This document shows, one piece after another, positions 3,098 through 13,104 of a stretch of 18,094 nucleotides of DNA (position 1 is the stretch's first letter; the number at the start of each line of letters is the position of its first letter). The notes beneath the pieces were generated by a model. The model did not search any database, was not told the origin of the DNA, and saw only the letters and a list, made by a program, of their open reading frames with translations. The position numbers and the translations under genes are program-made. Origin of the DNA: a virus; the UHGV virus genome UHGV-0036730; one strand, written 5' to 3'.

Positions 3098-3127
3098 GCC
3101 CGCGTCTCCCAGCGCGGGCTTTTTTTG
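3098..3127 (+). terminator. Rho-independent terminator (plus strand)
   Basis: Stem gcccgcg (3098..3104) / cgcgggc (3113..3119), 8-nt loop, then a T-run 3120..3126. Confidence 0.5.
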
Positions 3128-3128
3128 T

Positions 3129-3157
3129 CCATAAGAAAGCCCCTCCGGAGAGGGGCT
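3129..3157 (-). terminator. Candidate rho-independent terminator (minus strand), back to back with the plus-strand terminator
   Basis: Perfect 8-bp stem agcccctc / gaggggct with cgga tetraloop (3138..3157); on the minus strand it is followed by a U-rich tract (uucuuau). Confidence 0.35.
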
Positions 3158-3475
3158 GGAGAGTGGCGCTATGTGCCATTGCATGGTGCCGGGTGCCTCC
3201 CGGTGAGTTCAGTATCAGCACCTGAACCCGCACAGAAAGGATAAGGGTCGGTGACAAAACACCAGTTGCTGATTGCCCCTCCGCACAGGGGGATTCACCA
3301 TGCCAGTTTCTTTTAACAAACTCCCCGCAAACCAGACAACAGTCAACCGCCTGAATTGTGAGGTATTTAAAAATTTCAACGGGTAACTGATACCCTGCTA
3401 ATCGCCTGATGCTTTCTTTTTCAGCAACGGGGAAGCAACAACCACCACACCCACCAGCCGCCCATTTACCACAAA

Positions 3476-3885: not shown

Positions 3886-4278
3886 CTAATCATTTTTTAC
3901 TTTTTTGGGCAGCCAGTCGTCCATCTCCAGCCTTACACCCAGCATCGACAGACATCCGTCAATAAATCCTTCAGCAATCTGCATCTCAATTCGTATTGCC
4001 TTTTCGCTCTTCTTTCTTGTTCTGGCAATCTGCCTTTTTGATATGCGCAGCAGATAATGAGCTACCAGCAGCGAATACTCGTCCGGTTTTTTCTTCTTCA
4101 GGCGCGTAAGGCAGTTTTCGATGATAAGGCCGTCATCATCGCTGCAGGCCGGGCGAGGTTTAGCGGTGGATGGTAAAAGGCCTTTAAATCCAGCAGCTAT
4201 CGGAGAATAGTCCACCCCGGTGTTACCACTTGCCGCCCATGCGCCCCAGCGTTCAAGCACCTGCTGAATATCACGCAT
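3886..4278 (-). CDS. Antitermination protein Q, phage 21 / QuuD-like family
   Basis: Track ORF 3886..4383 trimmed to the ATG at 4278: [37 protein letters not shown]… matches the recalled QuuD/Q21 N-terminus (MRDIQMVLERWGAWAA…). Overlaps the ninH stop by 8 nt; followed by a tR'-like terminator. Confidence 0.7.
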   Translation of the reverse strand: MRDIQQVLERWGAWAASGNTGVDYSPIAAGFKGLLPSTAKPRPACSDDDGLIIENCLTRLKKKKPDEYSLLVAHYLLRISKRQIARTRKKSEKAIRIEMQIAEGFIDGCLSMLGVRLEMDDWLPKKVKND

Positions 4279-4471
4279 CAGAGTCTTTACCCTTATCCCA
4301 TCCACGATGGACCATAAGGACACCGTTGACGACGGCGTGCCGTTTGCCTTCTTTATCGCCAATATATTTTCTGACCGTGGCACGATTACAGTTCAGTATT
4401 CGGGCCACTTCGGTCTGATTTCCATATGCCTCAACAAGCATGTCAGGAATGATTTTTACGGTGAACGTCAT
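4271..4471 (-). CDS. ninH: NinH
   Basis: [58 protein letters not shown]… is near-identical in pattern to recalled lambda NinH ([36 protein letters not shown]…). Confidence 0.8.
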
Positions 4472-5037
4472 GCGGCCTCACTTCTGCTGTTTCGCAGGCC
4501 TTTAAGTTTCTGTTGATACTCTGCCTTGATCGCCTTGCACTCTTCGACAGTCCAGCGGTGGCGACTATGGTTTGATTCGATTTCGTCTACTGCTTCCTGC
4601 CCGATGCGGTTAATCAGTTCGACGCGATACGGAACGAGATTTCCGCTTTTGTATTGGTTACACACCACGCATTGCTTATGGATATTGCGTTCATCAAATC
4701 TGAGCTGAGGTGCCGCAGCTGTTGTACGGTAATGGCCAGCATCCCACTGGGCTGAATCTAACGTCCCGCATGAAACACACGGCAAATGACGGTCCCGCTC
4801 CCTGATATAAGCATTCACAGCCTGTTGTGCCTGCTTAATCCAGTAACTGCGGGGCTGTAAGTCCCTCCTGCGCGCTTTCAGCTTGTCTGCCTGCTCTTTT
4901 GCTGAAGTTATCGCCTTTTCTTTTCTGACCAGTTCCAGTGCGCACTGACCACAGCAAACTTTCTGATATGAGCGGAACGGCACAAACGAGGAGCCGCACA
5001 CTTTGCATTTTTTGGGTTTACGTTGCTTCATCATCAC
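4468..5037 (-). CDS. ninG: NinG / Rap recombination-associated protein
   Basis: …[96 protein letters not shown]… is near-identical to the recalled lambda NinG C-terminal two-thirds. ATGA overlap with ninH. Confidence 0.85.
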
Positions 5038-5038
5038 C

Positions 5039-5488
5039 TCAGAAAAACGACAGCAGGCGGTTATTCAGTTCAGGGCTGTTTGAGCGCCCAAACACATGCT
5101 TTAACGCGGCATTAATCATTGCGTTGTAGCAACGTTCAAACTCATCCTGATCCATATTCGCGTAACTCAGGCTTTTTGCCCGATATCTCACCTCGCCTCT
5201 TATGGTTGTGACCACATCATAGAACCCGGCAAGAATTGTCAGATTTTTACGAAACTCATCAAACTGCGTCGCTTCATCAGAGAATTCGTATCCAGCATGT
5301 TCAGCGCACCAGTACTGAAAGCAGAAATTAAGAAAAGCGAACATCTTCCGGTGAAAAGATGGGTTACGGGTAAGTTTTGCTTCCAGTGTATACAGCTCAC
5401 CGTTTTTAAATTTTGCCAGTCGGGGTAAATCGCGCTCATACGCCGGTACAAATACGCCATTAGCCGCCTTGATCATCTCTATTTCCAT
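5039..5488 (-). CDS. Phage protein in the NinB position (DUF1367-like; family assignment tentative)
   Basis: Track ORF of 149 aa; start overlaps the primase stop (TGATG). No convincing match to lambda NinB from memory. Confidence 0.45.
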
Positions 5489-6459
5489 CAGGCAGCCTCC
5501 GCTTTGAATTTGCGCGTCAACACATGTTCACGGGCTTCACACCCCTGAATGAGCATGTCGTTAAAATCCGGCAAGTCAGGCCAGCGAATGCTGACCTTCT
5601 CAACGTCATTACGACTCATGAGATTCTTATGCCCACATTTAAAGGCAGCCGCCAGACCTGCGCCGTGCTCATCATTGTCTGCAAAGATAATCAGGTGATT
5701 AACGCCTGGTGGCGCAATAAACTTCTCCATAAAACCGGAGTTCATTGTTGACCACACATTGCAGCGGAAGATTTGACGGCATGAAAGCGCAGTTTCGATA
5801 CCCTCGGCTATCCCCAGAGTGGACGACACCGGATACAGGCGTATTGCCACCGATTTGGCATGCTGCAAACCAGGCAACTCCTGTAGCGCAGTCATTTTTT
5901 TAGCCGCCTCTACATTCGCCTTGCGATCACCATCCAGCAACGTACGATGCAGATAGCAAAGAGAACCTTTGTCATCTGTTGCAATGGCGTAAATTGCCTG
6001 ATATTCGCGCCCGCTGGCGATCTGACGGTCACAGAAACGCACGGATTCGGTCGGTAACTGGAGTATTCCCCTCCCCTGCAGGTACGCCTCACCTGTTGTG
6101 CCCCGCAGACACGGGAGTCCGGCAAACTTATCCATGACCCGCTCCCGTTCTCTGGCAATATCCGTTACAGTGCGTCTGGCATGCCCTCTCTTCCAGGTAT
6201 TACCAACCAGTCGATCGACTTCATCGCACAGATCAACCCAGGGCTTACCCGTGGCAAGTTGCAACAACTTCATCCCGTCCCCGTGACCACAGACACAAAT
6301 CCATGAACCGGAACCATCCTTATCATCACAGCGAAATTTACCTCTGGCACCACATATCGGGCAGGGGCCGCTATAATGTTTCAAGCCAGTAACAGGAGGC
6401 ATGCCGTAATATTCAAAAATTCGCCCCCAATGCCCGGCCGCTGCCTTCTTAGTCTGCAT
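5488..6459 (-). CDS. DNA primase, P4-alpha-like zinc-ribbon + TOPRIM domain protein
   Basis: N-terminal CPICG…CDDKDGSGSWICVCGHGDG zinc-binding motif; C-terminal IIFADNDEHG (TOPRIM DxD-type acidic motif). Overlaps the helicase stop. Confidence 0.65.
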   Translation of the reverse strand: MQTKKAAAGHWGRIFEYYGMPPVTGLKHYSGPCPICGARGKFRCDDKDGSGSWICVCGHGDGMKLLQLATGKPWVDLCDEVDRLVGNTWKRGHARRTVTDIARERERVMDKFAGLPCLRGTTGEAYLQGRGILQLPTESVRFCDRQIASGREYQAIYAIATDDKGSLCYLHRTLLDGDRKANVEAAKKMTALQELPGLQHAKSVAIRLYPVSSTLGIAEGIETALSCRQIFRCNVWSTMNSGFMEKFIAPPGVNHLIIFADNDEHGAGLAAAFKCGHKNLMSRNDVEKVSIRWPDLPDFNDMLIQGCEAREHVLTRKFKAEAA

Positions 6460-7969
6460 GCTGGCCTCCTGTCATGGCTTTCTTGCGCCCTTTGGCATAG
6501 GCAATGGTCTTTGACTTGATGAAGTTGTACACTTCAACTGAGGTTTGCAGCGGCGCATTACTGAAGCCTTTAGGCCACACACCGAACTTCTCCTTGTAGG
6601 TATGAGCGCACCATCCGTCACTCAGGGGTTTACCCGTCGCGTTGCGGTAATTCTGATAACCCTTGATCTCACTCCACCAACGCTGTTTTTCCTCACGGGT
6701 GTATTCGCGTTTCCCTTTGTTGACGCGTGAAAGCTTACGATCGCGATCTGTCGCCACGTCATCACCACCAAGTGGGCGAAATCCACATTTGGGACACATG
6801 TGTACACCAGCAGGCTTCATGAAGTGGCATTTGGGGCATTCTCTGGGAAGTTTTTCAGCTTTAACCTCGCCACCGCCAGCAGACGCTTTCATTCCGTCAT
6901 TTTTTCCCGGAAGTTCGTCATACTCGATATCCTCGGGGAAGCCCAGCCGATGAACCGTACCGGAATGGTCGAAAATCAATGCGCGTTTTTTACCAGACGC
7001 AGTACGTAACGCTCTCCCGATGCACTGCAACCAGCGGATTTCTGATTTGGTCGGACGGGCGTAGATCAGGCAGCGAACATCGCTGTCAAATCCCGCAACC
7101 AGTACGCCGACGTTGACAATTATTTTGGTCGCACCATCTTCAAAACGGCGAATGATATCCTGCCGTTCATCATGGGGGGTATCTGCCGTCATCACCTCTG
7201 CGCCAATGCCAGACTGTAAAAACTCACGGGTAACAAAGTTCGCATGAGCCACGTTCACGCAGAAGCAGATCGTCGGTAAATCCTCGCCATTCTCAAGCCA
7301 GTTGCTAACGATATCGCCAACCAGATCCGAACTCCCCATGATGGATGCGAGCTGTTCCTCGTTGTAATCCCGTCCAAATACGGTGTTACTGGTTTTTACG
7401 CCAGTCAGATCAGGCATTGAGGGGGCAAAAAACTCGTAATCGCTCAGATCACCACGCTGAATAAGTTCACGAATCGTTGTAGGCTTGATCAGGCATTCGT
7501 AGTACTTCCCCATCCAGGCTGCGAATGGGGTGCCGGAAAGTCCAAGAACCCTGATGTCTCTGTCCCGGATAACCTCAAGTAACGCACGACGCTTCATGTG
7601 TGCTTCATCGATGATCAGCAGATCGATGTTGTCAGGAAACTCACGACGGATCAGCGTGTCGGCACTGGCAATCTGAATCAGTCGTGACGGGTCATAGTTA
7701 GGGTGATCACGCCATACAAAACTGATTTCTTCCCACGGTAAACCGTATTCGGTGAAACGTTCCGCTGTCTGGTTCAGCAGGATGGTGTACGGACAGACAA
7801 ACATCACCCGCATACCACGTTCAACCATTCCGGCGGTGACGAATGCTGCAAGACCAGTTTTGCCAGAGCCAGTGGGTGCGTACATCAAGTACGTGCGATG
7901 CTGTTTCCACTGGTGCCGCAGCTGGTTTAAACCGCGCTCCTGAGCAAAGTTTGGGATTATTTTCAGCAT
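6449..7969 (-). CDS. Superfamily-2 DEAD/DEAH-box replicative helicase with C-terminal zinc ribbon
   Basis: Walker A APTGSGKT; DEAH box LLIIDEAHM; C-terminal CPKCHF…CPKCGF. 506 aa, operonic with the primase. Confidence 0.7.
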   Translation of the reverse strand: MLKIIPNFAQERGLNQLRHQWKQHRTYLMYAPTGSGKTGLAAFVTAGMVERGMRVMFVCPYTILLNQTAERFTEYGLPWEEISFVWRDHPNYDPSRLIQIASADTLIRREFPDNIDLLIIDEAHMKRRALLEVIRDRDIRVLGLSGTPFAAWMGKYYECLIKPTTIRELIQRGDLSDYEFFAPSMPDLTGVKTSNTVFGRDYNEEQLASIMGSSDLVGDIVSNWLENGEDLPTICFCVNVAHANFVTREFLQSGIGAEVMTADTPHDERQDIIRRFEDGATKIIVNVGVLVAGFDSDVRCLIYARPTKSEIRWLQCIGRALRTASGKKRALIFDHSGTVHRLGFPEDIEYDELPGKNDGMKASAGGGEVKAEKLPRECPKCHFMKPAGVHMCPKCGFRPLGGDDVATDRDRKLSRVNKGKREYTREEKQRWWSEIKGYQNYRNATGKPLSDGWCAHTYKEKFGVWPKGFSNAPLQTSVEVYNFIKSKTIAYAKGRKKAMTGGQHAD

Positions 7970-8349
7970 GACGCCCCCTTGCTACGTGATTTACCCGTTG
8001 CCGGGATCACGTCGATCTCATCGCTAACGTATTGATCCGGATTACATGAACAGCGCAGAAGCACGATACCAGGAATGCCGTATAGCTTGAGTCTGCGCAG
8101 TTTCAGTATTGAACGTGCCCGTGGTGACGCTCTGTCCACCTCGATCGCGCACCGTTCACCAGATGGGGCAACGACCATGATATCGACGAATCCGCGCTTA
8201 CCGTTGCCCATATCAACCAGATAATTACGTTCGATCGCCAGTCCGGCATCACGCAATTTGGCAGCCAGCACATAATCAAACGTGACCTTGTCTTTTCCGG
8301 TGTAGAATTTGTTTCCGAGCAGGCTGATAACCACATGTTTGATGAACAT
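7963..8349 (-). CDS. Hypothetical protein, 128 aa, first gene of the replication operon
   Basis: Track ORF overlapping the helicase start by 7 nt; possible PD-(D/E)xK-like motif (GFVDIMVV…ERCAIEVD), speculative. Confidence 0.4.
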   Translation of the reverse strand: MFIKHVVISLLGNKFYTGKDKVTFDYVLAAKLRDAGLAIERNYLVDMGNGKRGFVDIMVVAPSGERCAIEVDRASPRARSILKLRRLKLYGIPGIVLLRCSCNPDQYVSDEIDVIPATGKSRSKGASC

Positions 8350-8570
8350 GGTACTATTTCCACTGTGATAGTTAGCACAATAATAATTTCGCCAGAAACT
8401 ATCGCGCCCTATACAGTGATCTACCTAACCTATGGAGCTGCCTTCCTCTGGTAGTGCCCTTACGGGCACGGATGTTACAGATCTGCCCCCTTACCCCCTT
8501 CTTAGTAAAATTTCAAGCCAAATAATTTCACATGAAATTATTTCACAAAAAATAATCACCTTGATGAGGT
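8350..8570. promoter_or_regulatory. Intergenic region with palindromes and AT-rich iteron-like repeats; candidate replication origin and/or promoter
   Basis: 16-bp palindrome gtgccc-ttac-gggcac (8454..8469); inverted repeat aataatttca-ca-tgaaattatt (8521..8542); reiterated (a)aattt(t)ca motifs 8505..8560; two GATC-containing tacag(t)gatct repeats (8411..8421, 8475..8484). Confidence 0.25.
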
Positions 8571-8852
8571 CTATTCCTTCCGTATCGCTACTGGCGAAAG
8601 CATCCAGCCACGGCTGGCTCTCGCGTACTTCTGGACATACACCCGTAACCGGGTGTTGGCGCTCCGTCTTGCCCTGTTGCCCTTCCTGAACGATACAGGC
8701 TCCTTGTCCCACTCTTCCTGGTACACTCTCGCGTACTCTGCTGCAATTTTTACCCGGGTGGTCGGGTCTAGCTGTAACAATTGCTCCTGTATCCAGTCCC
8801 GATCAGCATCGCTGTACTGATCGGGCATAACCGTTTTGATTTGCCTGTTCAC
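8571..8852 (-). CDS. Hypothetical protein in the cII position (no recognisable similarity to lambda cII)
   Basis: Track ORF (GTG at 8852; alternative ATG at 8828 giving MPDQYSD…). Basic C-terminal half. Immediately downstream of cro. Confidence 0.4.
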   Translation of the reverse strand: MNRQIKTVMPDQYSDADRDWIQEQLLQLDPTTRVKIAAEYARVYQEEWDKEPVSFRKGNRARRSANTRLRVYVQKYARASRGWMLSPVAIRKE

Positions 8853-8882
8853 TCACACCTCCGATGGGCTGTGTGTCCAGGA

Positions 8883-9086
8883 TTAATCATCGCCTCTTAC
8901 GAACGCAGGGAACGGTCGAACCTCTTCCGCCTCAACTCTGCCGTCATCAAAGGTTTTGACGTAAATTTCACGTCCGACAAGAAGCGCTTTACTGATCGCG
9001 CTCTGCGCCACACCAAAGTCCTTAGCGGCTTTCTTCTGACCGAACCTGTATACGTAATCAGCCAGGGTCTCTTTTTTCATCGCCAT
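8883..9086 (-). CDS. cro: Cro repressor (lambda Cro family)
   Basis: Track ORF 8883..9122 trimmed to the ATG at 9086, which has an AAGGAG ribosome-binding site with 7-nt spacer. [60 protein letters not shown] parallels recalled lambda Cro (…[36 protein letters not shown]…AEEVKPFP). Divergent from cI. Confidence 0.8.
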
Positions 9087-9181
9087 AACTGACTCCTTCA
9101 AAATGCCCATATCATTACGCACAGTTATTAAAATGTCAACACCGCAGATATTTCATTACATATAACCAAAGGTGATATGGT
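9087..9181. promoter_or_regulatory. cI-cro divergent promoter/operator region (OR-like)
   Basis: 95-bp intergenic region between divergent cro and cI. Minus-strand TTGACA (plus tgtcaa 9134..9139) is suitably placed as a -35 for a PR-like promoter. Inverted ccatatca / tgatatgg elements (9107..9114 and 9173..9180) are candidate operator half-sites. Operators not defined with certainty. Confidence 0.4.
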
Positions 9182-9895
9182 ATGAACATGAAAAAGAAAC
9201 CGTTAACCCCTGAGCAACTGGAAGACGCCAAGCGTCTGAAAAGTATTTTTAACGCTAAAAAGAAAGAGTTAGGCCTGTCGCAGGAATCATTAGCCTATGA
9301 ATTAGGTGTTACCCAAAGCGCTGTTAATCAGCTAATGGCTGGCATCAACGCCATAAATGCCAGCCACGCAGCACAGCTTGCTAAGATACTGAATGTAAAG
9401 GTCGGAGATTTCAGTCCCAGCCTGGCAAAATCTATTGCAGAAATGGCGCTCGCAATTGAAGAGCCATTAACTCGTGTCCCCGCTTACGAATATCCGTTAC
9501 TCTCCTGCGTACAAGCTGGCGCATTCTCAATGGATGATATTTCGTACACCGCAAAAGATGCGATTAAATGGATCTCCACCACCACAAAAGCCAGTGACAG
9601 GTCGTTCTGGCTGGAGGTCAAGGGGCATTCAATGACCGCACCGCAGGGTGGTAAACCCAGCTTCCCTGAAGGTATGCTGATACTCGTTGACCCTGAACGG
9701 GAAATCGAGGATGGCGATTTTTGCGTGGCCCGAATGAACGGCGATGAATTTACCTTCAAACGATTCATTCGTGAGAGCGGTAAAGCGTACCTGGAGCCGC
9801 TCAACCCACGATTCGACATGATTGAGTGTAACGAAAACTGCCAGTTTGTCGGAAAGGTCATCAAATCGCAGTGGAATGATGATACTTTTGATTGA
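9182..9895 (+). CDS. cI: CI repressor, lambda CI family (HTH DNA-binding domain + S24 LexA-like autocleavage domain)
   Basis: 237 aa; collinear with recalled lambda CI along the whole length (KKKPLT.EQLEDA.RLK…LGLSQES…FSP……EYEYP…VQAG.FS…[33 protein letters not shown]……GDFC.AR..GDEFTFK…). Confidence 0.9.
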
Positions 9896-12294: not shown

Positions 12295-12917
12295 TGACCG
12301 CACTCCGCTAACCGCCCCCTTGAAAAATAAATCACTTTAAAAATCAGTTAAGTAATATTTTTTTGACCCCAATAACCACCAACGGTATTTACACAAAAAT
12401 CACCGCAAGTTATATTTATTTCAAGCCAGAAACATCGCGCCCTTACACAGGGCTACATAAATCAGTCGTACGGCGCGACTTAACCCGCCGCAAAATGCTC
12501 TTTAACAATCTGGAGCTTTACAGCGTCAATGACCTGTTTAGACCCCTACACGTAAACGTGCTGTATCATCGGGTGCGATCCGGTCGATGAGAGAGTATCC
12601 CCGCGCGAGAGCGAGAACGGCGTGAGAACGGGCAACACTGGCAGGAAGTTGGCGCTGACCAATACAGGGAATGTTTTGGGGTGTGGTGAAGGGTTCATGG
12701 ACGGGAATATGTCGCACGTAAAGCGGCGAGGCCCGAGGGACTATTGCTGAAGATAAGTAGGCCGAATCGGGTCGAAATGGGTCTCCCACCTGCCACATCG
12801 CCAAAGCGTTTCTGAGAAAGGACGGTATTGACTGCGTGTGATGTCGGGGCTATATTTGGCGAACACCTCATAAAACGGGTGTCGGGATTGCTACCCCGCT
12901 GACAATCGAGGCGATAC

Positions 12918-12939
12918 AGACGCGCCAGCGTCTTTTTTT
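12918..12939 (+). terminator. Rho-independent terminator upstream of rha (tL-like position)
   Basis: Stem agacgc / gcgtct with gcca loop (12918..12933) followed by a T-run (12933..12939). Confidence 0.45.
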
Positions 12940-13104
12940 GTATCGACATACACGCACATCTTATCAATGGTGGGCTGTATGGGGCCGACTTCGGTCGGGC
13001 TGGTTCCCTTGATTGCCAGTTGTAGCAACCCTGTACAGTCCACCGCCAGCGAGCTTGCTACCTCCAGCGGTGGTTATCAATCACCAATCAAGGAGGCTGC
13101 CATT

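Follow-up and report, generated by a model that had tools for sequence, protein, structure and literature searches.

A conserved non-coding element upstream of the helicase and primase genes is a candidate initiation region of Eru1-type prophages

Analysis of an 18,094-nucleotide stretch of a viral genome (UHGV-0036730), referred to here in its full length as the window, reveals that the 221-bp gap separating a 93-aa gene from a 128-aa gene is a genuine non-coding element, under selection and tightly linked to genes for a helicase and a primase, as the original prediction of a special region at this position had held. We tentatively propose, with somewhat less than an even chance of being right, that this gap is the cis-acting initiation region of an Eru1-type replicon consisting of the 93-aa protein, an SF2 helicase and a primase. 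On the comparative evidence given below, the element, which many enterobacterial prophages share, relatives of the O104:H4 Shiga-toxin phage among them, is the best candidate for their replication origin. It is not a lambda-style iteron origin.

The genes that surround the gap are as follows.

8571-8852, minus strand: 93-aa gene at the cII position (PHROG match, phrog_852)
7963-8349, minus strand: 128-aa ORF, whose stop overlaps the helicase start by 7 nt
6449-7969, minus strand: SF2 DEAD/DEAH helicase of 506 aa, Eru1A (ResIII, Helicase_C and DEAD matches; Pfam, PHROG)
5488-6459, minus strand: zinc-ribbon/TOPRIM primase of 323 aa, Eru1B (Zn_Ribbon_Prim, DUF7146 and Toprim_3 matches; Pfam, PHROG)
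5039-5488, minus strand: DUF1367/NinB-like protein of 149 aa, Eru1C (domain match)

Replication by a helicase and a primase, and not by O and P proteins, had been predicted for this DNA, and is borne out both by these domains and by a scan of the ten ORFs from cI to the esterase gene, in which no Phage_rep_O or P-type domain was found. The helicase is 99% identical to that of TL-2011c, and the primase, encoded directly downstream of it, shares about 94% identity with the TL-2011c-type one. Further genes identified in the window are those for Cro, an S24 repressor, NinG and Q. Given a 506-aa eru1A helicase, a 323-aa eru1B primase and a 149-aa eru1C DUF1367 protein, placed between cI/cro and Q with O and P absent, the gene module is the already published Eru1 replication unit of non-lambdoid Stx phages and is not new; the three eru genes were named in that work (Llarena 2021, PMC8044961). 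The Eru1 units of TL-2011c, the O104:H4 phage P13374 and phi191 have the same genes in the same order, likewise between cro and Q and without O or P. The present prophage differs from the Eru1 Stx phages in that it carries no stx, and from TL-2011c both in the upstream half of the gap and in the gene that follows the gap, which shares only 37% identity with its TL-2011c counterpart. In some of the most virulent EHEC/EAEC outbreak strains, stx2a is borne by Eru1-type phages, which reportedly form unusually unstable lysogens. Neither the 93-aa gene nor the small gene before the helicase is named eru in the two Llarena papers (2021, PMC8044961; 2022, PMC8951638), which are silent on the origin and on the non-coding element, and full-text literature searching found no description of an Eru1 origin.

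The gap has a GC content of 41%, compared with 49% for the window, and holds the following features.

8350-8570, minus strand as the sense strand: the whole conserved non-coding element, the candidate initiation region; the gap is not filled by any ORF
8506-8565, no strand: AT-rich block forming the upstream flank site, about four 15-bp units of the AATAATTTCAC type
8520-8543: 24-bp palindrome AAATAATTTCA-ca-TGAAATTATTT with 11-bp arms
8537-8556: inverted repeat ATTATTT-N6-AAATAAT
8486-8498, minus strand as the sense strand: G-tract GGGGGTAAGGGGG (G5TAAG5)
8454-8469, minus strand: palindrome GTGCCCTTACGGGCAC, a hairpin GUGCCC-GUAA-GGGCAC with a 6-bp stem and a 4-nt loop
8418-8434, minus strand: core CATAGGTTAGGTAGATC, a tandem AGGT-N motif followed by GATC
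8418-8431, minus strand: 14-mer AGGTTAGGTAGATC within the core
8361-8418, minus strand: downstream flank, an interrupted inverted repeat CACTGT..GATAGTT-(23 nt)-AACTATC-ACAGTG

In the conserved element the parts follow one another in the order flank site, G5-7/W1-3/G5-7 tract, stem-loops, core, hairpin and second flank site. The 23-nt loop of the downstream flank holds a remote AT-rich unit (8382-8396), and on the sense strand the hairpin at 8454-8469 could be enclosed by a 5-bp pairing of GGGGC (8485-8489) with GCUCC (8434-8438). About 0.65 kb upstream of the G-tract is a pR-like TTGACA-17-AATGAT site. The most conserved features of the gap, the G5TAAG5 tract and the 14-mer, were absent from the original prediction.

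We compared the repeats with 2000 shuffled versions of the gap that preserve its dinucleotides. An inverted repeat of at least 11 bp has a probability of P = 0.0005 in such shuffles, as do at least nine stem/loop combinations of at least 6 bp when overlapping registers of one palindrome are counted separately, and simple k-mer repetition is not above chance (8-mer count P = 0.28). Tandem Repeats Finder reports a period of 15 with 2.5 copies at 8520-8556, and the three occurrences of AAT[AT]ATTTC in the 18-kb window all lie within the gap. These results confirm the predicted repeat-rich intergenic region of about 220 bp with a 16-bp palindrome. They correct the predicted 10-bp inverted repeat, which is real but has 11-bp arms, and they uphold the reiterated AT-rich motifs as about four 15-bp units plus a remote copy, but not as k-mer repetition above the chance level. 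Over 8500-8560 the GC content is 0.175-0.2, and the lowest 40-bp GC of the window is found here, the 12320 region excepted. G5-N1-4-G5 has a single match in the window, against 0.08 expected, and the 14-mer occurs once even when 3 mismatches are allowed. Scans for the DnaA-box and IHF consensus sequences gave no enrichment and no notable site.

Conservation was assessed in two sets of loci, 55 anchored on the motif and an unbiased set of 76 anchored on the helicase, with gene presence counted in 75 of the latter. The element is conserved in prophages of Escherichia, Klebsiella, Yersinia, Serratia and Pseudescherichia, and the same architecture is found in the 55 motif-anchored loci and in 71 of the 76 helicase-anchored ones. 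Between the 93-aa gene and the helicase, the exact 14-mer is present in 55 IMG/VR contigs whose helicases are 65-100% identical and also in seven genome loci of Yersinia, Serratia and Pseudescherichia; distant loci have the core variants GGGTTAGGTAGGTAC and GAGTGAGTAGATCT. The most widely conserved feature of the element is the G-tract. G5-N1-4-G5 occurs on the sense strand in 71/76 helicase-anchored loci, 158-869 nt upstream of the helicase, and has 0 matches in 325 kb of remaining locus sequence. The gene that comes after the element is the 128-aa gene, another gene or the helicase itself, and the retention of the element in each case argues against a gene-specific translational leader.

There are exactly two flank sites per locus, about 140-185 bp apart, and their sequence family switches at both together. 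Other subfamilies have GTACYAG..CTRGTAC or TTTAGACGTC in place of the AT-rich block, and among members of the window's own subfamily the downstream flank varies in step with the upstream flank site. The AT-rich repeats, which had been expected to recur in prophages sharing the module, are specific to the closest subfamily, as are the two palindromes, and as literal sequences they fail the refutation test that the original prediction had set, but relatives with the same helicase and primase do have repeat sites of other, unrelated sequence at the same two positions.

Five loci are without the element (L209, L212, L227, L228 and L245). In L209 and L245 the slot is occupied by a gene whose RepL score exceeds the Pfam cutoff. 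L212 and L227 are taken to have this gene as well, since the DNA that flanks the slot is near-identical, and the upstream DNA of L228 resembles that of L245. In these four of the five loci, the RepL-like initiator gene that holds the slot of the element is preceded by a core-like AAGGTCAAGGTCAACAC..GATC. In a complete 37-kb Klebsiella phage, the only replication genes are the 93-aa homologue, the helicase and the primase, and a 308-bp gap is the only large gap of the early region.

The 93-aa gene is found upstream of the helicase in 75/75 helicase-anchored loci and is the constant partner of the helicase-primase pair. The invariant module consists of the 93-aa protein together with the element, helicase and primase, and not of the three eru genes of the literature. 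The true start of the 93-aa gene is probably Met9 at 8828, which gives an 85-aa product; PGAP annotates 85 aa in a genome with a near-identical replication region, in which the gap is 100% identical. The motif EPVSFRxxNRARxxANTRLR of this protein is largely invariant. An AF2 model has three helices (pLDDT 76), and searches of Pfam, NCBIfam and the PDB gave no sequence match. An attempt to assign the protein to an HTH or another known DNA-binding fold failed, the three-helix model having no Foldseek or PDB match. The type of flank site mostly matches the clade of the 93-aa protein, with the exception of locus L123, whose 93-aa protein is 72% identical to the Klebsiella one and which nevertheless has TTTAGACGTC flank sites, so that the correlation is broken.

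Some helices of the element covary. Within the window's subfamily, the 24-bp palindrome has undergone one compensatory change from A-U to G-C with a G.U intermediate, five variants of the 8454-8469 hairpin have a C to U change that yields a U.G pair, and in the downstream flank repeat one pair has changed in a compensatory way from A-U to G-C, while several changes have produced G.U. At the position of the hairpin, relatives have stem-loops of other sequence, with three unrelated closing helices that abut the core and one compensatory pair in the inner hairpin (AGUGC/GCACU to AGCGC/GCGCU). Immediately past the 93-aa gene, relatives also have hairpins whose stems covary around a conserved loop, CUUAAAGGUG. 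The sense strand of the window folds with z = -4.0, as opposed to -1.55 for the antisense strand. Across subfamilies the whole-element z-scores are neither consistently significant nor strand-biased, and for this reason we dropped the claim of a globally structured sense-strand RNA. The strand bias of wobble changes (7 vs 2 transition events, read by eye) is not significant (P about 0.09). RNAalifold found nothing in a mixed MAFFT alignment because the subfamilies are not structurally aligned in it, and a duplex-energy cross-matrix for the closing helix was uninformative, since the G-rich upstream regions pair promiscuously.

The covarying helices and the sense-strand fold of the window fit a single-stranded intermediate, and the initiation we propose would proceed through one. 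Early transcription from pR would cross the G-tract and produce a G-rich nascent RNA opposite a C-rich template strand; the G-rich RNA would favor an R-loop, or the duplex may be opened in another way. The non-ring SF2 helicase would then be loaded on the displaced sense strand, which bears the hairpins and the AGGT-repeat core, and the zinc-ribbon primase would prime there. A protein of the module, for which the 93-aa protein is the obvious candidate, would bind the paired flank sites, and an O-type sequence-specific initiator would not be required. The full form of this proposal is that an enterobacterial temperate phage family, the O104:H4 and O103:H25 outbreak Stx phages included, initiates without a sequence-specific double-strand DNA initiator, through an R-loop at a CSB-II-like G5-7/W/G5-7 tract and a displaced strand, with hairpins and core, onto which the SF2 helicase would be loaded along with a T7/P4-type zinc-ribbon primase; we regard this full form as unlikely. 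Against the origin reading, no homology to any mapped origin was found, DnaA-box and IHF sites are not enriched, and a conserved unwinding element is not evident, since the AT-rich block is confined to one subfamily. Initiation could instead take place within the helicase or primase genes or further downstream. When the replication genes (4400-9250) were searched outside the gap, repeats formed no clusters and occurred only as pairs at the chance level.

ColE1 RNA II, T4 oriF/oriG and mitochondrial CSB II are transcription- or R-loop-primed origins. The element resembles them in its structured surroundings, in a G-run/W/G-run tract that lies on the non-template strand past a strong promoter and recurs in the related loci counted above, and in that a dedicated double-strand origin-binding initiator is not evident. 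It has no sequence homology to them, and an R-loop here is putative. In addition, those origins employ Pol I and RNase H or a phage polymerase, whereas the present module would use its own helicase and primase, and the tract in the window has only two G-runs and therefore, unlike that of several relatives, a weak potential for an intramolecular G-quadruplex. The oriV of RSF1010/IncQ has iterons and ssi hairpins that are used by the plasmid's own RepC initiator, RepA helicase and RepB' primase. Here, too, a small protein, a helicase and a primase form a self-contained trio, encoded beside a compact non-coding region in which repeats and hairpins occur along with GC-rich and AT-rich parts. However, the helicase is SF2 and not a ring, there is no oppositely oriented ssi pair, and no protein or DNA homology to oriV was found.

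The main rival of the origin reading is that the element is a cis-acting leader RNA of the replication operon, which would fold in the pR transcript and control downstream expression through HK022 put-like factor-independent processive antitermination, attenuation or RNA stability, and would not be an origin. We consider this possible, though rather unlikely. The conservation of the hairpins and the sense-strand wobble changes fit an RNA function equally well. A leader RNA would account for the covarying local helices (three closing helices, the inner hairpin and two compensatory pairs in the window's subfamily), for one-sided changes that mostly give G.U on the sense strand, for the lower sense-strand z-score of the window and for the CUUAAAGGUG-loop hairpins of relatives, and one that acts on RNA polymerase would tolerate the insertion of genes downstream. 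Eru1 phages are, moreover, reported to be without N (Llarena 2021, PMC8044961). Against this reading, a search of Rfam 15 at E <=1 found no family in 8350-8570, nor in six diverse relatives over the corresponding stretch, no terminator-like site is present in the element or adjoining it, the sequence of the flank sites (GTAC..GTAC) is kept more than their pairing, the folding z-scores are inconsistent across subfamilies, and the presence of a RepL-like gene in place of the element is left unexplained. HK022 put RNAs are cis-acting antiterminator RNAs, and put-type elements serve both early operons. Like them, the element is non-coding and structured and belongs to an early operon of a lambdoid phage without N. 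It differs in being a single copy, about 0.6-0.75 kb from pR, that has no pL-side counterpart (the core, allowing <=3 mismatches, and the G-tract are absent from 8.9 kb on the pL side of cI), and put, as generally described, has nothing that corresponds to the G-tract or the flank sites. As to a conserved two-stem fold of the put type that would act on RNA polymerase, local helices covary, but the strand bias is not significant and the whole-element z-scores differ among subfamilies.

It is improbable that the gap is a lambda-like double-stranded iteron origin, in which the 128-aa (or 93-aa) protein would bind the 15-bp AT-rich repeats as iterons and an AT-rich unwinding region would adjoin them. 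Like oriLambda, the element comes after the cII position in the early-right operon, is part of the pR transcript and includes both repeats and an AT-rich stretch; its approximately four tandem units and one remote copy are confined to this gap, and outside the 12320 region no 40 bp of the window have a GC content below that of this stretch (0.175). Unlike oriLambda, it is located outside any gene, no O-type (Phage_rep_O winged-helix) initiator is encoded in the ten ORFs from cI to the esterase gene, and the conserved hallmarks are the G-tract and a short AGGT-repeat core and not family-wide repeats. The repeats are missing from most relatives with the same helicase and primase, so there is no set of at least three iterons conserved with an initiator. 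As to an adjoining unwinding region, the low GC content over 8500-8560 would suit one, and no comparable AT-rich block is conserved in other subfamilies. The repeat block is, furthermore, largely one palindrome that behaves like a hairpin stem, and its k-mer repetition is no greater than chance.

The 128-aa protein also speaks against iterons. It had been described as a leader gene of the helicase and as a possible binder of the repeats. The ORF is indeed present, but it is not a constant leader, being found in 38/75 helicase-anchored loci as an optional accessory. Its AF2 model (pLDDT 89.9) matches Bax1, NucS/EndoMS and VRR-NUC in Foldseek with probability 1.0 and TM-scores of only 0.45-0.5, and a profile search gave a match to AF1548. 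Among stand-alone homologues (set A3), D72, S80 and K83 do not vary and E70, P76 and R77 hardly do, and in the set of fused homologues (A2) D56 and E70 are near-invariant. The protein is thus predicted to have a PD-(D/E)xK fold, with both the fold and the acidic and lysine residues by which this superfamily is recognized; a nuclease fold of this kind, if the model is correct, is not a winged helix. Homologous domains occur elsewhere fused behind Phage_rep_O, DUF1376 or HTH_36 N-terminal domains, which ties the neighborhood to initiation; in a comparison of the 128-aa protein with an O-like protein, only the non-O middle domain matches. Being optional and 94-100% identical while the AT-rich repeats vary, the 128-aa protein is a poor candidate for a repeat-binding initiator, and the proposal that it binds the repeats is not sustained. 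It is removed as an essential player.

A transcription-control region is very improbable. In that case the replication genes would be served by a promoter/operator pair in the gap, or an oop-like promoter there would direct antisense transcription against the 93-aa gene, with the flank sites as operators of a phage regulator. An antisense promoter-like TTCACA-18-AATAAT is present on the plus strand at 8527-8556, aimed into the 93-aa gene from the position that lambda uses for oop, and the palindromic flank sites, with two in every locus, would suit operators. However, promoter-like matches in the region are no commoner than in shuffles (3 vs 1.9 expected), the 8527-8556 site is not conserved in TL-2011c or in other subfamilies, a scan for promoters and terminators found no sense-strand promoter in the gap, the flank sites are unlike the OR operators, and the G-tract and the invariant core would be left unexplained.

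That the gap is a mosaic junction or spacer without function, its repeats being remnants of inter-module recombination, is hardly credible, for although identity to TL-2011c drops sharply where the 93-aa gene ends, right at its stop codon, and a second time within the 128-aa gene, the G-tract and a 78-bp block are kept between these diverged flanks, the 14-mer is invariant where helicases are only 65% identical, and the order and spacing of the parts are also kept.

The origin reading narrows the search for the origin to a short element with parts that can be mutated, namely the G-tract, the 14-mer core and the paired flank sites. If the element is instead a regulatory RNA, it would represent an uncatalogued RNA family. 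If the element is an origin that transcription fires, it would start replication in a way that is not described for lambdoid phages, and would link the leakiness of the repressor to phage copy number and toxin output. If, in particular, the R-loop reading is true, replication and Stx dosage would be wired directly to the leakiness of pR, which could explain the lysogenic instability reported for Eru1 phages.

The window covers a portion of a lambdoid E. coli prophage whose early-right genes lie on the minus strand, in the following order of transcription.

9182-9895, divergent from cro: S24/HTH repressor gene
9122-8883, minus: cro, first in transcription order
8852-8571, minus: 93-aa gene, in the cII position
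8570-8350, minus: non-coding gap, 221 bp
8349-7963, minus: 128-aa gene
7969-6449, minus: SF2 helicase, 506 aa
6459-5488, minus: zinc-ribbon/DUF7146/TOPRIM primase, 323 aa
After the primase: DUF1367/NinB-like gene, then NinG, then Q

A pR-like site, TTGACA-17-AATGAT, separates the repressor gene from cro. As originally predicted, replication is encoded by a helicase and a primase and not by O and P; ten ORFs, from cI through to the esterase gene, were scanned and no O or P domain was detected. No stx genes lie in the interval from Q (3886-4383) to the DUF1737/SASA esterase gene (1002-2903), the place where Stx phages carry stx, and the prophage is therefore stx-negative with an Eru1 module. Three RNAs exceeded the Rfam gathering cutoff: STnc100 sRNA (3127-3332, minus), located between Q and the esterase gene, and, on the pL side, an isrK-like RNA directly followed by C4 antisense RNA (12863-12938 and 12963-13050, both plus).

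The helicase-primase gene module is the already published Eru1 replication unit. Eru1 was defined for phage TL-2011c and the O104:H4 Stx phage, with eru1A encoding a 506-aa SF2 helicase, eru1B a 323-aa Toprim protein and eru1C a 149-aa DUF1367 protein (Llarena et al. 2021, PMC8044961). The helicase of the window is 99% identical to that of TL-2011c and the primase approximately 94%. The two Eru papers (PMC8044961, PMC8951638) are silent on an origin, on the non-coding gap and on the small upstream genes, and a full-text search of the literature found no study of an Eru1 origin. The 93-aa gene goes unnamed in these papers, although it is constant upstream of the helicase.

The gap, which had been proposed as the replication origin, is real and its repeats exceed chance: inverted repeats of such length or number arose in only about 1 in 2000 dinucleotide-preserving shuffles. 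The 16-bp palindrome lies at 8454-8469. What had been called a 10-bp inverted repeat is present but larger, a 24-bp palindrome (8520-8543) with 11-bp arms, and a third inverted repeat occupies 8537-8556. The reiterated AT-rich motif proved to be a 15-bp tandem array with a remote copy at 8382; the 9-mer AAT[AT]ATTTC is confined to the gap within the 18-kb window. A promoter-like TTCACA-18-AATAAT (8527-8556, plus) faces the 3' end of the 93-aa gene in the antisense direction, in the same position as the oop promoter of lambda, and is not conserved in TL-2011c-type loci. E. coli 2015C-3121 and UCPROB-002 match the gap sequence (8330-8590) at 100% identity, and alignment with TL-2011c gives a mosaic: the 93-aa gene is near-identical as far as its stop codon, the next 130 nt diverge around conserved islands including GGGGGTAAGGGGG, a 78-bp block (8368-8445) common to about 130 E. 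coli genomes is approximately 90% conserved, the next small gene encodes a protein with just 37% identity, and identity resumes at the helicase start.

The 14-mer AGGTTAGGTAGATC, taken from the 78-bp block, has exact matches in over 120 contigs of IMG/VR. Of the 120 matches listed, 55 place it between a 93-aa homologue and a helicase 65-100% identical to that of the window, and the remaining 65 are unrelated coding or chance matches. A 16-mer version of the core (a tandem AGGT-N motif with GATC) has the same arrangement in seven Yersinia, Serratia and Pseudescherichia genome loci, and the core is also found in the Klebsiella and E. coli phages ST16-OXA48phi5.3 and phi467. To avoid the bias of anchoring on the motif, we fetched 80 loci through the helicase alone, of which 75 had enough upstream sequence for gene counts; motifs were counted over 76. 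The 93-aa gene is present in 75/75, which makes it part of the replication module, and the primase in 72/75. The 128-aa family gene, by comparison, is found in only 38/75, so that the idea of a fixed leader gene for the helicase had to be abandoned. With up to two mismatches the 14-mer occurs in 35/76 loci, and most of the others have variant cores, GGGTTAGGTAGGTAC or GAGTGAGTAGATCT. Upstream of the helicase, at a distance of 158-869 nt, 71/76 loci have a sense-strand G-tract of the form G5-N1-4-G5; the remaining 325 kb of these loci contain no match on either strand. The element keeps its position whatever comes next, be it the nuclease-fold gene, an HNH gene, a different one, or no gene at all.

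In all subfamilies the sense strand reads flank site, G-tract, one to three stem-loops, core, hairpin, second flank site and next gene, with the AGGT-repeat core ending in GATC or GGTAC. The G-tract of the window (8486-8498) consists of two G-runs only. Flank sites fall into sequence families: loci of the window and TL-2011c types carry GAAAT(A/T)ATTTC palindromes, those of the Klebsiella, phi467, Yersinia and Pseudescherichia types carry GTACYAG-N-CTRGTAC, and low-GC loci of the L197 type carry TTTAGACGTC, as does locus L123. Every locus checked has exactly two copies of its site motif, one on each side of the core, with about 140-185 bp between them. Among ten close variants of the window type, most variation falls in the two flank sites, which by eye vary in step, and the central 100 nt are almost invariant. 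The expectation that the repeats would be conserved in prophages sharing the module thus failed for the literal sequences: the AT-rich repeats represent the flank site as it occurs in one subfamily, and the conserved heart of the element lies elsewhere. A lambda-like iteron form of the origin reading is probably wrong. The origin interpretation of the gap is a plausible hypothesis that is now better founded.

Several relatives carry one or two hairpins right after the 93-aa stop, with covarying stems and a conserved loop, CUUAAAGGUG (or CUUGAAGGUG, AUCAAGGUG), as at L004 4240-4290, L006, L125, L203 and L240. These could be boxB-like protein-binding RNA hairpins; the window retains only a vestige, TCA-TCAAGG-TGA, at about 8548-8559.

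We tested five helices in the window subfamily: the AT-rich palindrome, GGGGC/GCUCC, the GUGCCC-GUAA-GGGCAC hairpin, and two from the two-part downstream repeat. They are 96.8% paired, compared with 34-49% when the partners are slid, and at two pairs A-U has been replaced by G-C in a compensatory manner. Read on the sense strand, seven one-sided changes produce G.U and two other transitions A.C, a bias that is not significant (manual tally, P ~0.09). In subfamilies with an inner AGYGC-GAA-GCRCU hairpin, itself showing one compensatory change, the closing helix abutting the core is built from three unrelated sequences (GTGCCCGT/ACGGGTAC, GGAGTTG/CAACTCC and TGATCT/AGATCA). The folding z in the window is -4.0 for the sense strand and -1.55 for the antisense strand; across subfamilies, whole-element z-scores show neither consistent significance nor strand bias. 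Judged by these sequence comparisons, local helices are under selection, and some single-stranded state of the element is likely. The helix data fit RNA and displaced ssDNA equally, and the short palindromes are also compatible with dyad-symmetric protein sites. The 5' arm of the 8454-8469 hairpin, GUGCCCGU, is also that of the long-range closing helix in phi467-type elements (L004, about 4351-4358), and the simple hairpin of the window may be the phi467-type domain minus its two inner hairpins.

Five helicase-anchored loci (L209, L212, L227, L228 and L245) lack the G-tract element. In L209 (1553-2388), which additionally carries a NUMOD4/HNH endonuclease gene, and in L245 (2117-2937), the gene in its slot scores above the Pfam RepL cutoff and also matches HTH_36. 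In L212 and L227, which look the same as L209, the gene was assigned from near-identical DNA, giving four of five, a count that leaves out L228. Ahead of the RepL-like gene lies a tandem AGGTNA motif, AAGGTCAAGGTCAACAC..GATC, that resembles the core. RepL is a family of plasmid replication initiators, and finding a known initiator type here is the strongest indirect reason for placing the initiation determinant in this slot.

The 128-aa protein has a confidently predicted PD-(D/E)xK nuclease fold (AF2 pLDDT 89.9), with Foldseek matches to NucS/EndoMS, to VRR-NUC and to Bax1, a nuclease that partners the SF2 helicase XPB, and a profile-search match to AF1548. The 7-nt overlap between the stop of its gene and the start of the helicase gene is suggestive of translational coupling. 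The same domain forms the middle part of 250-500-aa proteins with N-terminal Phage_rep_O, DUF1376 or HTH_36, such as the 390-aa "replication protein O" of Providencia phage PSTCR7lys (L005, 3994-5166), encoded beside a DnaB-like helicase; on its modeled fold it is an uncharacterised nuclease-fold domain of phage initiators. We rejected the 128-aa protein as the site-specific initiator and regard it as accessory, because half of the loci lack it and its identity stays at 94-100% even where the flank sites differ between loci. The 93-aa protein has a largely invariant basic motif, NRARxxANTRLR, and a three-helix AF2 model. No known homologues of it were found, and it is not demonstrably a CII homologue; a lambda CII homologue is reported absent from Eru1 phages (Llarena et al. 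2021, PMC8044961). A conserved Met9, together with the 85 aa annotated by PGAP, suggests that the true start is at 8828.

If the element is an origin, transcription from pR through the G-tract would favour a stable RNA-DNA hybrid, and the sense strand displaced by it, which bears the hairpins and the AGGT-repeat core, would provide ssDNA for loading of the SF2 helicase and priming by the T7/P4-type zinc-ribbon primase. The paired flank sites would bind a protein of the module, perhaps the 93-aa protein. Such a mechanism resembles those of ColE1, T4 and mitochondrial CSB II in logic, and RSF1010 as a self-contained helicase-primase replicon, in each case without sequence homology. The element showed no homology to any mapped origin and no enrichment of DnaA-box or IHF sites, and no conserved AT-rich unwinding block was found across relatives. 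A cis-acting RNA, as opposed to an origin, is compatible with all of these observations except two: the element is single-copy, with none on the pL side of the window, and its replacement by RepL-like genes is not accounted for.

Also bearing on origin function is L248 (NZ_CP076549.1), a 37-kb K. pneumoniae record deposited as "plasmid p5", which in fact holds the full genome of a temperate phage, integrase included. Its entire early-right operon comprises cro, the 93-aa homologue, a 308-bp gap (the sole sizeable gap in the early region), helicase, primase, one ORF and Q, and no replication genes beyond the 93-aa homologue, helicase and primase were found in the genome. L248 shows the module in a minimal, naturally occurring form that would lend itself to experiments. 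No earlier description of the conserved composite element appears to exist, and it offers a well-defined target for experiment in a medically relevant group of phages.
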